Below are positions 24,723-33,160 of a DNA stretch of 38,265 bases, in pieces (the stretch's first letter is position 1; every line of letters starts with the position of its first letter). Under the pieces are notes generated by a model. The model ran no database searches, was not told the origin of the DNA, and saw only the letters and a program-made list of their open reading frames with translations. Position numbers and translations under genes: made by a program. Source of the stretch: a virus (lineage: Duplodnaviria; Heunggongvirae; Uroviricota; Caudoviricetes); the IMG/VR virus record IMGVR_UViG_2917870735_000001, positions 1 to 38,265 of that record; one strand, given 5' to 3'.

Positions 24723-26054
24723 ATGTTAGATACACTATCTTTCACTGAACGTGACGAGTTCCAACGAAGAAACATCGCTGAAAATATCATCAAGTTGCTA
24801 AAACCAGAGGCAGACATTTCACCACTGGTAATAGACGGCGCATGGGGAACAGGGAAAACAGAATTTAGTATCAAACTGAAAAATCTCATTATTGAGCAAG
24901 AAACCGAATCTAAAGTTGTTTATATTGATGCCTTTAAAGGGGATCATGCAGAATCTCCATTACTTCTCATAACCTCTGCAATTGCTAGCATTTTGCCTGA
25001 GGAAGAAAAACAACACTTCATTAAGAGATCACTTCCTGCAATTCGATTTGGTTTAAAAACGGTACTAAAAGCTGGTGCAGGTTGGTTTTTACGACAGGAG
25101 GCTAGTGAAGTTGCCGAAGAATTCCAAGATGCGATGAAGAAAGCAAGCAATGCAGCAATAGATGGGACTATTGAAAATTTGCTTGAAGACCATATGGAAT
25201 CAGAGAAAAACATAAATTCACTTAAATCTTGCATCGAAAGTATTTCAGAAAATCAAAAGATAGTAATTATAATTGATGAATTAGACCGATGTAAGCCGAG
25301 TTTTTCAACAAATGTCATTGAAACAATAAAACACATTTTTGACATCAATAATGTCTTTTTTATTTTAGTTACAAACACAGAACAATTAAAAGCATCGATA
25401 AATCATATTTATGGTTATAGTATTAACTCACAAAAGTATCTTGACAAGTTTATAAAATATACCATCACGCTTCCAGACACATGTTTAATAAATGGTCACG
25501 TCGTATGTAAAACATCTGCTATATATTGGAATTACCTTGTAGACAAGACAAAATCACTAAATGAAATTAATAGTTTATCTGGTAGATTTATCCGTGATTT
25601 AATTCAACGAACCAACTTATCCTTACGTGAAACACAAACTTTTTCACGCAATCTTAACATTTTTCAACTGTTAAACGACGAGGAGTACAAAAGCAGTGCT
25701 CCTTTAATAAATAGGATCTTTGTCGTAGCTGTCTTCATACATTGCTTTGGTGACAAGGAAAAAATAAAACAAGAAATTACCGCTGAATCTATATCTCATT
25801 TAGCAGACCTGCTTAACATAAAAGAAATACCTTATTCTTATGAGAGAAGATCGCAAATTCCTGAAATATCTATTGTATTCTTCGGAATAATTAAAGACAG
25901 CATTACTCTTAATGCGCGATTTGCCCCTAAAAGTGATGAAGAACTTAAAAGATTCACAAATGTTTATACTAATTATGATCACCTAAATTTTTGGAGTACT
26001 ACACCCAGAGAGTTATTGATAAAATATATCAATCAAATGTCATTCATTCAGTAA
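24723..26054 (+). CDS. KAP-family P-loop NTPase
   Basis: 443 aa; Walker A GAWGTGKT (about residues 39-46) and the KAP-characteristic Walker B ..IVIIIDELDRC..; markedly AT-rich relative to flanking phage genes; opposite strand to the late operon; strong terminator immediately downstream. Confidence 0.8.
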   Translation: MLDTLSFTERDEFQRRNIAENIIKLLKPEADISPLVIDGAWGTGKTEFSIKLKNLIIEQETESKVVYIDAFKGDHAESPLLLITSAIASILPEEEKQHFIKRSLPAIRFGLKTVLKAGAGWFLRQEASEVAEEFQDAMKKASNAAIDGTIENLLEDHMESEKNINSLKSCIESISENQKIVIIIDELDRCKPSFSTNVIETIKHIFDINNVFFILVTNTEQLKASINHIYGYSINSQKYLDKFIKYTITLPDTCLINGHVVCKTSAIYWNYLVDKTKSLNEINSLSGRFIRDLIQRTNLSLRETQTFSRNLNIFQLLNDEEYKSSAPLINRIFVVAVFIHCFGDKEKIKQEITAESISHLADLLNIKEIPYSYERRSQIPEISIVFFGIIKDSITLNARFAPKSDEELKRFTNVYTNYDHLNFWSTTPRELLIKYINQMSFIQ

Positions 26055-30786: not shown

Positions 30787-31340
30787 GCGTTAGTTTCTCC
30801 ACAATTAGAAGCAATCGACGCCACGACGCCCGGAGCTGCACACTCGCGGGCGTCATTACTTTCTGAAATGCAAAAGATTTTGTAGACCAGTGCTGCATGC
30901 TCCTGCAGCTTCGAAATTGACAGGTACAGTTCGTCGTTAATTGCTGCCTGCTCGTGTGGTTCCACCACCCCATCTTCAATTGCTGAACGAATCTGTTTTG
31001 AATAACTGCCGATCTGTTCAATGACCTCCAGCAGGCGTTGATTGATATCGGCGTTCTCTACTTCCTCAATTTCAGGAAGCGATACAAACACCCCACCAGC
31101 AGACTGTGCGACTGCATCCGCAATGTGGTGAGTGCCAGCAGCACGCTGTAAAACCATTGCCCATCCCAGCGGGAAAATCTGATCGCCATCGGCACGAAGG
31201 CGGTTGAATAAAGCGTTCTCTGTTACATCCAGCCAGTCAGCAGCTTCAGCGTACCCCCCCGGCAACGCCGCGATAGTTTTTCTGACAGCTTTCACGTACC
31301 ACTCAGGCTGTTTTTCTACTTTCCAGTGATGCTTACCCAC
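30783..31340 (-). CDS. early regulatory protein in CII position (possibly YdaT-like)
   Basis: 185 aa; GTG start at 31340 with AGGAGG RBS, overlapping cro-like 3' end; assignment rests on synteny (cro, then this gene, then replication genes), not on sequence recognition. Confidence 0.4.
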
Positions 31341-31593
31341 GGCTTACCTCCTGTTCCTGTGGTTTAAACTCATTCCGGTTTTGACTAGATTGAAAACGAG
31401 CAGGGTAGAGAATCTGCATTTCGCTGATTTCGCCCTTAAAAAAATTGGCCAGACGTTCTGCAAGATCGATAGATGGAATTTGTTCCAGTCTCTCAATACG
31501 ACTCAGCGTCGCTGGATTGACCTGAACGCCCGCAGCAACATGCTGCAAAGTGAATCCATGCGCCTTACGCACATTTCGTAATGGTGATTGCAT
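31333..31593 (-). CDS. Cro-like HTH (XRE-family) repressor
   Basis: 86 aa; HTH ..HGFTLQHVAAGVQVNPATLSRIERLEQIPS..; ATG at 31593 with GGAGG RBS; divergent from cI across an operator-containing intergenic region. Confidence 0.7.
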   Translation of the reverse strand: MQSPLRNVRKAHGFTLQHVAAGVQVNPATLSRIERLEQIPSIDLAERLANFFKGEISEMQILYPARFQSSQNRNEFKPQEQEVSRG

Positions 31594-31690
31594 ATAACCT
31601 CCACATATTGCGTGATAAGCATATTATTTCACGCAAAAAATTTGCGCAAGTTGATTTGCTTAACGCGCAATAAAGAAATGTAATAAACGC
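31594..31690. promoter_or_regulatory. immunity operator/promoter region (OR-like) with divergent promoters
   Basis: Inverted repeat TTGCGTGA (31608..31615) / TCACGCAA (31629..31636); palindrome TTGCGCAA (31642..31649); further CGCAA half-site at 31666..31670. Candidate rightward-genes promoter on minus strand: -35 TTGCGC, 17-nt spacer, -10 TAATAT. No SD before cI ATG. Confidence 0.6.
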
Positions 31691-32383
31691 ATGAACATAG
31701 GAAACCGAGTCAGACAACTTCGCCAGGCGAAGAACATGAAAATCGCCGATCTTGCTGAAGCAATAGGAGTGGATGCGGCGAACATCTCACGTTTGGAAAC
31801 AGGCAAGCAGAAACAATTTACCGAACAAGCACTGAGCAATATTGCCAAGAGCTTAGGTGTTGATATTGCTGATCTCTTTACCATAGACATCAAAAGTAAT
31901 ACTGTATATAAAAACAGTATTAATGAGGATGTTACGCAGGTGAAGGATGTGTTCCGTATTGAAATGCTGGATGTCAGTGCCAGTGCGGGAAATGGCCTTA
32001 TCCAGGGCGGTGATGTCATTGATGTGATTCATGCCATCGAATACAGAACTGATAATGCTGTATCGATGTTTGGCGGACGACCAGCCAATCACATTAAAGT
32101 TATCAACGTTCGTGGAGACAGTATGTGTCCAACCATAGAGCCAGGAGATCTAATCTTCGTTGATGTCAGTATCAATCAGTTTGATGGAGATGGTATCTAT
32201 GTATTTGGTTTTGATGATAAAATTTACGTCAAACGACTGCAAATGATACCTGACAAATTGCTGGTGATTTCTGATAACCAGATTTACCGCGAATGGGGAA
32301 TTACCAGCGAAAATGAACACCGATTCATGGTCTTTGGAAAGGTCTTAATCAGCCAGTCACAAACCCTTAAGCGACACAATTAA
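31691..32383 (+). CDS. cI: CI-type repressor (HTH_XRE plus S24 LexA-like autopeptidase domain)
   Basis: 230 aa; N-terminal HTH (..MKIADLAEAIGVDAANISRLETGKQ..), C-terminal S24 domain with Ser motif (..VRGDSMCPTIEPGDLIFVD..) and Lys (..YVKRL..); divergent from cro-like gene. Confidence 0.9.
   Translation: MNIGNRVRQLRQAKNMKIADLAEAIGVDAANISRLETGKQKQFTEQALSNIAKSLGVDIADLFTIDIKSNTVYKNSINEDVTQVKDVFRIEMLDVSASAGNGLIQGGDVIDVIHAIEYRTDNAVSMFGGRPANHIKVINVRGDSMCPTIEPGDLIFVDVSINQFDGDGIYVFGFDDKIYVKRLQMIPDKLLVISDNQIYREWGITSENEHRFMVFGKVLISQSQTLKRHN
31900..31919. promoter_or_regulatory. SOS-box-like palindrome TACTGTATATAAAAACAGTA inside the cI coding sequence
   Basis: Matches the LexA box consensus TACTG(TA)5CAGTA at 18 of 20 positions, with both CTGT/ACAG arms and TA flanks intact; lies in the linker-coding part of cI. 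Confidence 0.4.
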
Positions 32384-32402: not shown

Positions 32403-32427
32403 AGCCACTAGAAGGTGGCTTTTCATT
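32403..32427 (+). terminator. terminator-like hairpin downstream of cI
   Basis: Stem agccac / gtggct (6 bp) with 6-nt loop followed by TTTTCATT; 20 nt after cI stop. Confidence 0.5.
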
Positions 32428-32436
32428 GCCCACAAC

Positions 32437-32490
32437 ATTGCACATTACGCAATAAAATACTTGCACAGCACGCAATTTAATTTTATCTTT
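32437..32490 (+). promoter_or_regulatory. second operator cluster (OL-like) with candidate rightward early promoter
   Basis: Same half-sites as OR: ATTGC..GCAAT (32437..32453) and TTGCA..CGCAA (32461..32475); candidate -35 TTGCAC (32461..32466) and AT-rich -10 around 32481..32490. Confidence 0.35.
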
Positions 32491-32941
32491 CTTTCCAGAC
32501 CAACAAACAAGGTCCTAACAAAATTTGGTTGTAACACGGCGTATGGCACATGCGTCATTAGCGGTCTGGAGACGTTAAAGGGGACAATCCACTCCTTGCT
32601 CGGGCAAACAAACCAGGTAGCCGGAATGTGCAAGTCAATGATGATGCTGACAAGACGCCTAACCAGCGTGGCGATTCGGTTTGACGCCTGGGAAGAGACC
32701 AGGGTGCAACGATAAGAGCATTTATGGAGCCGCAACAAAGTGTGGTGCCGTAACGGGCTAAGTGCTCTCAGCGTTGTGGTAATCCGCGAAATGGCGCGGC
32801 GGTAAGTATGGCGGGGTTACTCTTTCCCCGTTGAGGACACCGGGTTGTCAGGCTGACCATACGCCTGAGTGACAACCCCGCCACAACAGCCACTGCCTTG
32901 GCGGTATCAGTTTGTACCATTGCTTCCGGCTGGTACCGCTC

Positions 32942-33040
32942 TTTTTACAAAACAGAGAAGAGCATCACCGGACGACGGGCTCATAACCCAATCCATCCGG
33001 GCGGCTACTACCGCAGGTGTTCTTCTCTGTTTTGTGGAGA
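32942..33040. repeat. long inverted repeat: perfect 15-bp arms ACAAAACAGAGAAGA / TCTTCTCTGTTTTGT separated by 59 bp
   Basis: Arms at 32947..32961 and 33021..33035, extendable with G-U/A-U pairs to about 20 bp (32942..33040); lies in an ORF-poor leader upstream of the early-left genes. Confidence 0.5.
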
Positions 33041-33160
33041 AACTAACCGCCCCTGCGGGGGCATCTATTGAAACGTAATTGACTCAATAATCGCCGGATG
33101 GCGAGGGCTTCCTTTTCCCAAAATTCAGCGCGGTGCAGCGCATATAAAGTGGAGAACGAA

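Follow-up and report, generated by a model that had tools for sequence, protein, structure and literature searches.

Phage 434 has short, symmetric operators whose outer bases are conserved and whose centres vary. Of the five leaderless mRNAs of E. coli K-12, three code for prophage repressors, and the ymfK mRNA of prophage e14 was mapped as leaderless (PMC4681348). The switch analysed here belongs to a family that also comprises those of mEp460, SfII, Stx2a_1447/WGPS2, and ST64B. These phages have the same type of cI and cro, the same 97-bp spacer, and the same operator positions as our window (the whole stretch of 38,265 bp that was analysed), with small differences inside the operators; ST64B and several others also carry a strong extra site within cro, which is weak in the window. 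The operators are unannotated in the records of these phages, and the mEp460 record starts cI at Met16. At the DNA level, the 1-kb cro-cI block of the window is 92-95% identical to mEp460, several Stx2a-converting phages, and SfII, and a similar block (90-98% DNA identity) occurs in 1040 of 5426 complete E. coli genomes (19%). In the literature searched, no description of the operators of the mEp460/SfII/ST64B immunity type was found, nor were reports of CI binding or transcription starts for the phage in the window or its relatives. Thus, this appears to be an ordinary and very common lambdoid switch whose operators were apparently undescribed before. Judged by sequence comparison, the region is probably the OR of a lambdoid prophage whose immunity type is that of mEp460/SfII/ST64B, with 15-bp operators and a cI gene that is likely leaderless.

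The window contains a lambdoid prophage in reverse orientation (Table 1). The divergent cro and cI genes are separated by a short control region, as in a lambdoid switch, and a CP76/YmfL-type CII gene and replication genes lie leftward of cro. This gene layout, the protein domains, and the relatives bear out the proposal of the sequence-only reading that the spacer is an OR-type control region of a lambdoid immunity module. In CI, the Pfam domains HTH_3 and Peptidase_S24 cover residues 7-62 and 104-218, respectively, and UmuD matches residues 137-219. The solved structure nearest by sequence to the N-terminal domain is that of the 434-repressor derivative 1sq8 (E = 7e-4). The motifs SASA99-G100, GDS144M, and VK181RL are present, and A99-G100, S144 (in GDSM), and K181 (in VKRL) are invariant in the CI alignment of the relatives. 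CI has the architecture of a self-cleaving HTH plus S24 repressor with an Ala-Gly site and a Ser/Lys dyad, and its cleavage is predicted. The CI N-terminal domain and Cro gave no BLASTP alignment. Read directly, the cores of their recognition helices are S-R-L-E in CI and S-R-I-E in Cro, and because this S-R-x-E core is common to both, Cro presumably uses the CI sites. A scan of the window against Rfam returned zero matches.

Table 1. Features of the immunity region and its surroundings in the window. Operator, promoter, and LexA box names denote predicted functions.
Feature	Position	Strand	PWM score (rank in window)	Remarks
cro-like gene	31333-31593	-		86 aa, HTH_3 domain
Shine-Dalgarno of cro, GGAGG	complement of 31598-31602	-		4 nt upstream of cro ATG
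Weak operator-like site ATGCGCCTTACGCAC	31558-31572		9.9 (10)	Inside cro ORF, 50 bp from OR1
OR control region	31594-31690			cro/cI spacer, 97 bp, two back-to-back promoters
OR1, TTGCGTG-A-TAAGCAT	31608-31622		14.9 (2)	About -8 to +7 of PR
PR -10, TAATAT	31621-31626	-		Abuts OR1; relatives have TAATAT, TAACAT, or TATTAT at the same position
Extra half-site TCACGCAA	31629-31636			Lineage-specific; right arm of the inverted repeat of the sequence-only reading
Central element, TTGCGCA-A-GTTGATT	31642-31656		4.4	Centre 42 bp before cI ATG
PR -35, TTGCGC	31644-31649	-		17-nt spacer to -10
OR3, TTGCTTA-A-CGCGCAA	31656-31670		14.7 (4)	Centre 28 bp before cI ATG
Candidate PRM -35, TTGCTT	31656-31661	+		17 nt upstream of TGTAAT; relatives have TTGCNN
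Candidate PRM -10, TGTAAT	31679-31684	+		Followed by AAACGC (6 nt) and cI ATG
cI repressor gene	31691-32383	+		230 aa, N-terminal HTH_3/XRE, C-terminal Peptidase_S24
LexA (SOS) box TACTGTATATAAAAACAGTA	31900-31919			cI interdomain linker, codons 70-77
Intrinsic terminator of cI	32403-32427	+		SfII record annotates a terminator at the same place
OL2, TTGCACA-T-TACGCAA	32438-32452		16.3 (1)	Outside the training set
OL1, TTGCACA-G-CACGCAA	32461-32475		12.6 (6)	Overlaps candidate PL -35 and spacer
Candidate PL, -35 TTGCAC, -10 TATCTT	32461-32466 and 32484-32489	+		17-nt spacer

The sequence-only reading had listed several repeats in the spacer, and on direct reading every motif it named was found where it had been placed. 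TTGCGTGA (31608-15) and TCACGCAA form a perfect 8-bp inverted repeat with arms 13 nt apart, TTGCGCAA at 31642-49 is a palindrome, and the extra CGCAA half-site lies at 31666-70. Absent from that reading were the TTGC at 31656-59, which is the partner of this 'extra' CGCAA, and the fact that the entire region is an imperfect inverted repeat with 32-nt arms centred at 31639. It is barely conceivable that these repeats arose by chance or from the composition of an AT-rich spacer and play no part as operators. An 8-bp palindrome is not rare in 97 bp and has no significance by itself, and TTGCG-N19-CGCAA, with one mismatch allowed, shows no window-wide enrichment. However, TTGCG/CGCAA occurs five times in 63 bp and at most twice elsewhere in the 38-kb window, a density reached by one of 400 first-order Markov surrogates, and the four matches to [AT]TGC-N7-GCA[AT] within 900 bp are equalled in none of the 400. 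Besides these clustering statistics, the window-wide PWM ranks (Table 1) and the positional conservation over a range of 46-97% cI identity speak against chance, which the comparative data have effectively refuted already. The significance of the repeats rests on the one motif common to all of them and on its conservation in relatives. Clustering and conservation likewise support the earlier view of TTGCG/CGCAA as repeated half-sites.

The comparison covered 33 related immunity regions whose cI products are 46-97% identical. The more distant cI homologues, taken with their flanks, came from ST64B (82% at the protein level), Klebsiella phages (71%), a Yersinia phage (48%), and 30 genomic loci of Citrobacter, Klebsiella, Pantoea, Erwinia, Proteus, and others, with identities down to 46%. 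The cI gene of ST64B corresponds to STMMW_20241 (D23580, 2098186-2098881) and SL1344_1967, and 2098186 (+) in D23580 is the counterpart of 31691 in the window. Most relatives have a spacer of equal length, and the alignment could therefore be ungapped. Three blocks are conserved in the relatives: WTGCG-N5-CGCAT (31608-22), TTGCGCAAG(T/G)(T/C)G(A/C)TT (31642-56), and TTGC-N7-GCAW (31656-70). Sites at -83 (OR1) and -35 (OR3) from the cI ATG were present in 30 of 30 relatives at a fixed distance of 48 bp, and in the ungapped comparison of about 30 non-identical relatives these 15-mers keep the outer WTGC/GCAW bases and vary in the inner ones. We infer that the operator unit is a 15-bp palindrome, WTGC-N7-GCAW, with the family consensus TTGCGTA-N-TACGCAA, to which binding is predicted. 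Only the relatives' -83 and -35 sites went into a symmetric PWM, with the window and all OL sites excluded, and its ranks were taken among all 38,251 positions of the window. The predicted symmetric operators overlap both promoters of the control region, with OR3 covering the -35 element and spacer of PRM, and a second cluster is found at PL. OR3 is seemingly as strong as OR1, and positive autoregulation is therefore not evident. The 48 bp between OR1 and OR3 correspond to about 4.6 helical turns, a spacing ill-suited to simple side-by-side cooperativity. The position of the weak site ATGCGCCTTACGCAC scores 14-17.6 in many relatives, a signal that is confounded with the cro coding sequence. 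PWM matches outside the immunity region (15935, 35044) were dismissed, their number being within chance expectation.

Of the claim that the operators are built from TTGCG/CGCAA, the half-site holds but the pairing does not, as the conserved units are 31608-22 and 31656-70. In its exact form, the sequence-only reading took TTGCGTGA-N13-TCACGCAA (29 bp) as the operator, with TTGCGCAA as a separate element, and TAATAA, 4 nt before the ATG, as the -10 of cI. This model is improbable, even though the 8-bp arms of the 29-bp unit are a perfect inverted repeat, a second TTGCG-N19-CGCAA unit at 31642-70 lets the region be read as two such units, and positions 25623-51 resemble the left one (22/29). Each 29-bp unit amounts to a full 15-bp site plus a half-site, and OL is made of plain 15-bp sites. 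Moreover, the right arm TCACGCAA is present in the window, mEp460, SfII, and the Citrobacter relatives but absent in the ST64B, Klebsiella, Yersinia, and Pantoea relatives, with TCATACAG at its position in ST64B and CTACGCTA in a Klebsiella phage. The helix-turn-helix of CI is nearly invariant across the relatives, including ST64B and the Klebsiella phage. Because the right arm is unconserved despite this conserved recognition domain, the 29-bp repeat is unlikely to be the operator unit, and TTGCG-N19-CGCAA, also unenriched, was rejected as such. Another 15-bp candidate, CGCAA-N5-TTGCG at 31632-46, has the opposite polarity and lies exactly halfway from OR1 to OR3; it was discarded as well (PWM score -28, unconserved). 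The look-alike at 25623-51 lies inside a KAP NTPase gene and has no homologue in the phage collection.

At the centre of OR, TTGCGCAA comprises the PR -35 element and two overlapping half-sites. The leftward register (31635-49) has a PWM score below 3.5 in the window. Among the relatives, the half-sites are completed rightward, in the 31642-56 register, with scores of 9-12.7 at six loci (L011, L014, L023, L028, L033, and L037), and leftward, by 7 bp, with scores of 10-13.5 at five (L004, L011, L016, L017, and L018). The centre may thus be regarded as a degenerate OR2, which in the window would at best be weak and dependent on cooperativity. The conservation of the central element is confounded with that of the PR -35 and may simply reflect the promoter. 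In the rightward register, its distance from the cI start corresponds to the position, relative to PRM, of the lambda OR2 from which lambda CI activates PRM.

The assignments of PR, PRM, and PL are inferred from conservation and geometry. By consensus, PR and PRM are weak: their -35 hexamers match at three of six positions, and TGTAAT carries a G at the critical -11 A position. All three candidates scored below the threshold of the tool in the promoter scan. The cro promoter sequence TTGCGC-17-TAATAT that the sequence-only reading had proposed is present, and its class and spacing are kept in about 30 relatives. Its predicted start at about 31613-31614 would give cro a leader of about 20 nt. 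OL and PL (32438-32489) had escaped that reading, as had the other sites recognised at the family level. In most relatives a pair of sites follows the cI terminator; the spacing is 22-24 bp in the E. coli group, and in the Pantoea/Erwinia/Yersinia group the two OL sites abut, 15 bp centre to centre. The stretch 'TTATCTT' at the -10 element of the putative PL is conserved in the E. coli, Citrobacter, and Klebsiella relatives. OL1 is centred at -28 of the candidate PL and OR3 at -28 of the candidate PRM, so that the layouts of PL and PRM would be alike. The ORF-free PL leader showed no convincing similarity to a put-like (HK022) antiterminator RNA, with only a short 'CATTAGCG' stretch in common with HK022 put and a fold z-score of -0.9.

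Codons 1-15 of cI show conservation of the coding type, with Gly4, Arg8, and Arg11 invariant via four to six different codons, whereas several relatives have Ile or Leu as residue 16. The HTH_3 match, which begins as early as residue 7, agrees with an upstream start. Because residues 1-15 are conserved synonymously and residue 16 is not always Met, cI starts at Met1, and the start at Met16 in the mEp460 record was rejected on the same evidence. The claim that this ATG lacks a Shine-Dalgarno sequence is well founded: its anti-SD duplex has an energy of -0.9 kcal/mol, compared with -10.0 for cro, and by this measure few of the 30 gene starts compared in the window are weaker. No Shine-Dalgarno sequence was found before cI in relatives with the same OR. 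Three relatives with an unrelated upstream region (L020-L022) have a GGAGG-like Shine-Dalgarno sequence and thereby provide a natural control.

Upstream of the start codon, a T-N-N-A-A-T hexamer keeps a gap of 6 nt (rarely 7 nt) to the cI ATG, and the gap sequence and the flanks vary. This agrees with the earlier suggestion of a -10-like element hard against the ATG, but the element is probably not the one that had been named. TAATAA is indeed present at 31681-86, followed by ACGC and the ATG, and it has the -11 A that TGTAAT lacks. However, the conserved hexamer is TGTAAT, which overlaps TAATAA, and the conserved columns near the ATG are T31679, A31682, A31683, and T31684. TAATAA is unlikely to be the -10 because 4 nt to the ATG are too few for a start at the A of this codon; with a -10 ending there, the usual start would fall inside or past the start codon. 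The promoter of lambda cI, PRM (TAGATT-N6-ATG), and that of e14 ymfK (TTTAAT-N6-ATG) have the same geometry as TGTAAT-N6-ATG of the cI gene studied here. The lack of a Shine-Dalgarno sequence, combined with a putative -10 element that precedes the ATG by about 6-7 nt, is what would be expected of a leaderless repressor gene such as lambda cI, e14 ymfK, Rac racR, or Qin dicA, with the caveat of the G at -11. By analogy, the cI mRNA is probably leaderless and starts at the A of the cI ATG.

It seems unlikely that cI is expressed from leadered transcripts only, which would originate at the plus-strand promoter TCCACA-16-TATTAT (31600-27, start near 31634) or at a CII-dependent promoter of the PRE type inside or beyond cro, and whose translation without a Shine-Dalgarno sequence would be aided by the A/U-rich upstream region. 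TCCACA-16-TATTAT was the single promoter that the scan reported in OR and the only one in the region to pass the consensus threshold, and the 25 nt before the cI ATG are in fact A/U-rich. The presence of a CII homologue also makes an additional, leadered establishment transcript probable. On the other hand, 1.0 +/- 0.9 matches of this quality are expected by chance, and the hexamers are unconserved, as relatives have TCCTTC or TCCTAT at the -35 and TGTTAT at the -10 position; TCCACA-16-TATTAT was rejected on these grounds. The conserved T-N-N-A-A-T and its fixed 6-nt gap match two promoters known for leaderless cI-type mRNAs, and the relatives with a different upstream region acquired a Shine-Dalgarno sequence, which also argues for the leaderless reading.

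The switch may then work as follows. A CI dimer would bind the twofold-symmetric 15-bp operators. On OR1, with little or no help from the centre, it would block PR and keep cro and the early genes off; on OR3 it would block PRM, resulting in negative autoregulation; and on OL1 and OL2 it would block the early-left promoter PL. PRM (TTGCTT, 17 nt, TGTAAT, 6 nt) would start at the A of the ATG, so that the cI mRNA of the lysogen would have no leader and would be translated in the absence of a Shine-Dalgarno sequence. RecA-stimulated self-cleavage at A99-G100 by the S144/K181 dyad would relieve repression, and binding of Cro to OR3 is the likely route to silencing of cI.

A further element lies inside cI. 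The LexA box TACTGTATATAAAAACAGTA is the only strong match to CTG-N10-CAG in the window, agrees with the consensus at 18 of 20 positions, and is identical to the LexA box of E. coli umuDC. In about 28 of the 33 relatives a box is found at +207/+210 from the cI ATG. The surrounding linker is hypervariable in protein sequence, except for the residues that CTGT and ACAG encode. Furthermore, all 17 lineages with a retained box, of 19 in total, use ACT as its Thr codon (background 0.27; p = 2e-10). Synonymous codon choice has thus preserved the box throughout the clade. It was absent from the distant CI genes inspected (HK022, e14, and the Xenorhabdus and Gilliamella loci), and a limited literature search found no published description of a LexA box inside cI. 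TTTACC (31877-82)-17-TACTGT copies the umuDC layout TTGATC-17-TACTGT, with a -35 match of four in six positions that falls within conserved Leu-Phe codons. An antisense promoter at the box was ruled out, as the minus strand offers no -35 candidate. About 20-40 nt downstream of the box, where the S24 domain starts, an in-frame GTG (V84 or V87 in the window) follows a Shine-Dalgarno-like stretch, whose energy in most lineages is -6 to -12 kcal/mol. Of 15 lineages, 13 use GTG for the Val at this proposed start (background 0.21; p = 1e-7).

Tentatively, cI of this clade could hold a nested, in-frame, SOS-controlled gene for a UmuD-like CI fragment that consists of the C-terminal domain only. In that case, DNA damage would remove LexA and lead to production of the fragment, which could pair with full-length CI and weaken its binding to the operators. 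The fragment would be a built-in antirepressor and would add a LexA input to RecA-stimulated self-cleavage. Alternatively, LexA bound to the box may be a roadblock in the lysogen and hold down the transcription of cI, or the box may have been left behind in evolution when an HTH domain was fused to a umuD-like SOS gene. If functional, the box could change the view of induction in these phages, several of which carry Shiga toxin genes. Irrespective of the box, the analysis provides an operator consensus and a site map for an immunity type that occurs in about one fifth of the complete E. coli genomes and includes Stx2a-converting phages, the Shigella serotype-converting phage SfII, and Salmonella ST64B. 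It also corrects the annotation of the cI start to Met1, which has sometimes been replaced by Met16.

Compared with known systems, the locus resembles lambda in its divergent cI and cro genes and back-to-back promoters, which are about 77 bp apart here and 82 bp in lambda. Other likenesses are predicted operators over both promoters, a second operator cluster at PL after cI, a CI protein with a LexA-like S24 domain, and a putative cI -10 element located 6 nt before an ATG without a Shine-Dalgarno sequence. However, the operators proposed here have 15 bp (TTGC-N7-GCAA), whereas those of lambda have 17 bp (TATCACCGC...), and OR would consist of two strong sites 48 bp apart with a half-site at the centre, as against three sites spaced 23-24 bp in lambda. 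Also unlike lambda, the site that overlaps PRM apparently equals the PR site in strength, Cro is an XRE-type HTH protein, no rexAB follows cI, and many relatives have a fourth strong site in the cro ORF, 50 bp beyond OR1. The ymfK-ymfT region of e14 shares with this locus a divergent repressor/cro pair followed by YmfL-/YmfM-like genes, a palindromic operator immediately before the gene for the repressor, and a -10-like hexamer separated by 6 nt from the ATG. It was nevertheless rejected as a member of the same immunity type, as its CI is 23% identical, its Cro is unalignable, and its operators are of the TGTACC type. The operators of 434 have 14 bp (ACAA-N6-TTGT) and occur three per region, and the similarity of CI to the 434 repressor is marginal.

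The coding sequence of the repressor gene cI carries a LexA box, which lies at an offset of +207/+210 from the cI ATG among the related loci L001-L039. Throughout the clade, the choice between synonymous codons preserves this box. Some 20-40 nt 3' of it, a Shine-Dalgarno-like stretch is followed by an in-frame GTG, which is situated at the start of the S24 peptidase domain. Judged from this arrangement of sequence signals, cI may contain a putative nested gene under SOS control that would yield a CI fragment consisting of the C-terminal domain only. The start of full-length cI differs in the GenBank record of mEp460 (L007, JQ182728.1, 1546-2193), where the repressor is annotated from Met16; the probable reason is that no Shine-Dalgarno sequence precedes Met1. 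A repressor initiated at Met16 would be devoid of helix 1 of the helix-turn-helix domain.

Features in and around the immunity region (scores from a matrix trained on relatives only)
Feature	Position	Location	Remarks
LexA box	31900-31919	cI codons 70-77, interdomain linker	same sequence as E. coli umuDC operator
Operator-like 15-mer ATGCGCCTTACGCAC	31558-31572	within cro ORF, 50 bp from OR1	score 9.9, weak in window
Operator-like 15-mer ATGTAATAAACGCAT	31678-31692	across -10 of candidate cI promoter PRM and first two bases of cI ATG	score 9.3
TTACGTGAAACACAAACTTTTTCACGCAA	25623-25651	inside KAP-family P-loop NTPase gene, 24723-26054 (+)	

Operator-like sequences also occur outside the inferred operators OR1 and OR3 of the cro-cI spacer (OR). 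The site within cro is found at -133/-134 from the cI ATG in relatives, its CGCAT being preserved by the codon choices TCG/GCG and CAT, and in ST64B, Klebsiella, Citrobacter, Kluyvera, and other relatives it scores 14-17.6, on a par with OR1/OR3. At the cI start, the motif CGC-ATG is retained in most E. coli, Citrobacter, and Klebsiella relatives, and the operator-like stretch there includes a start-stop mini-ORF, ATG-TAA (31678-83); both the operator match and the mini-ORF may be coincidental. The look-alike in the KAP-family NTPase gene, for which no homologue was found in the phage collection, agrees with the left-hand part of OR (29 bp, 31608-36) in 22/29 positions and contains both 8-bp arms of the inverted repeat proposed there by the sequence-only reading, with one mismatch. 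By a rough estimate, ~0.01 matches of this quality are expected by chance per window.

Downstream of cI, the predicted operators of the OL pair adjoin without a spacer, 15 bp centre to centre, in Pantoea, Erwinia, Atlantibacter, and Yersinia relatives (L024-L028, L033, L037, L005; for example ATGCGCTTGACGCAT|ATGCGCAAGACGCAT), an unusually tight layout for helix-turn-helix repressor dimers. In these relatives, the -35 TTGACG of the predicted PL falls within the first OL operator.

The ~600 nt 3' of the candidate PL (32490-33097) contain neither a convincing ORF nor an Rfam match, and, according to the SfIV paper (PMC3851460), an N gene is absent from these phages. Likeness to HK022 putL is confined to a short CATTAGCG stretch. 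With the Salmonella relative ST64B, where the sRNA STnc1310 is annotated 326 nt past the cI stop, this region shares a single stretch, 32941-33047, at 84% identity.
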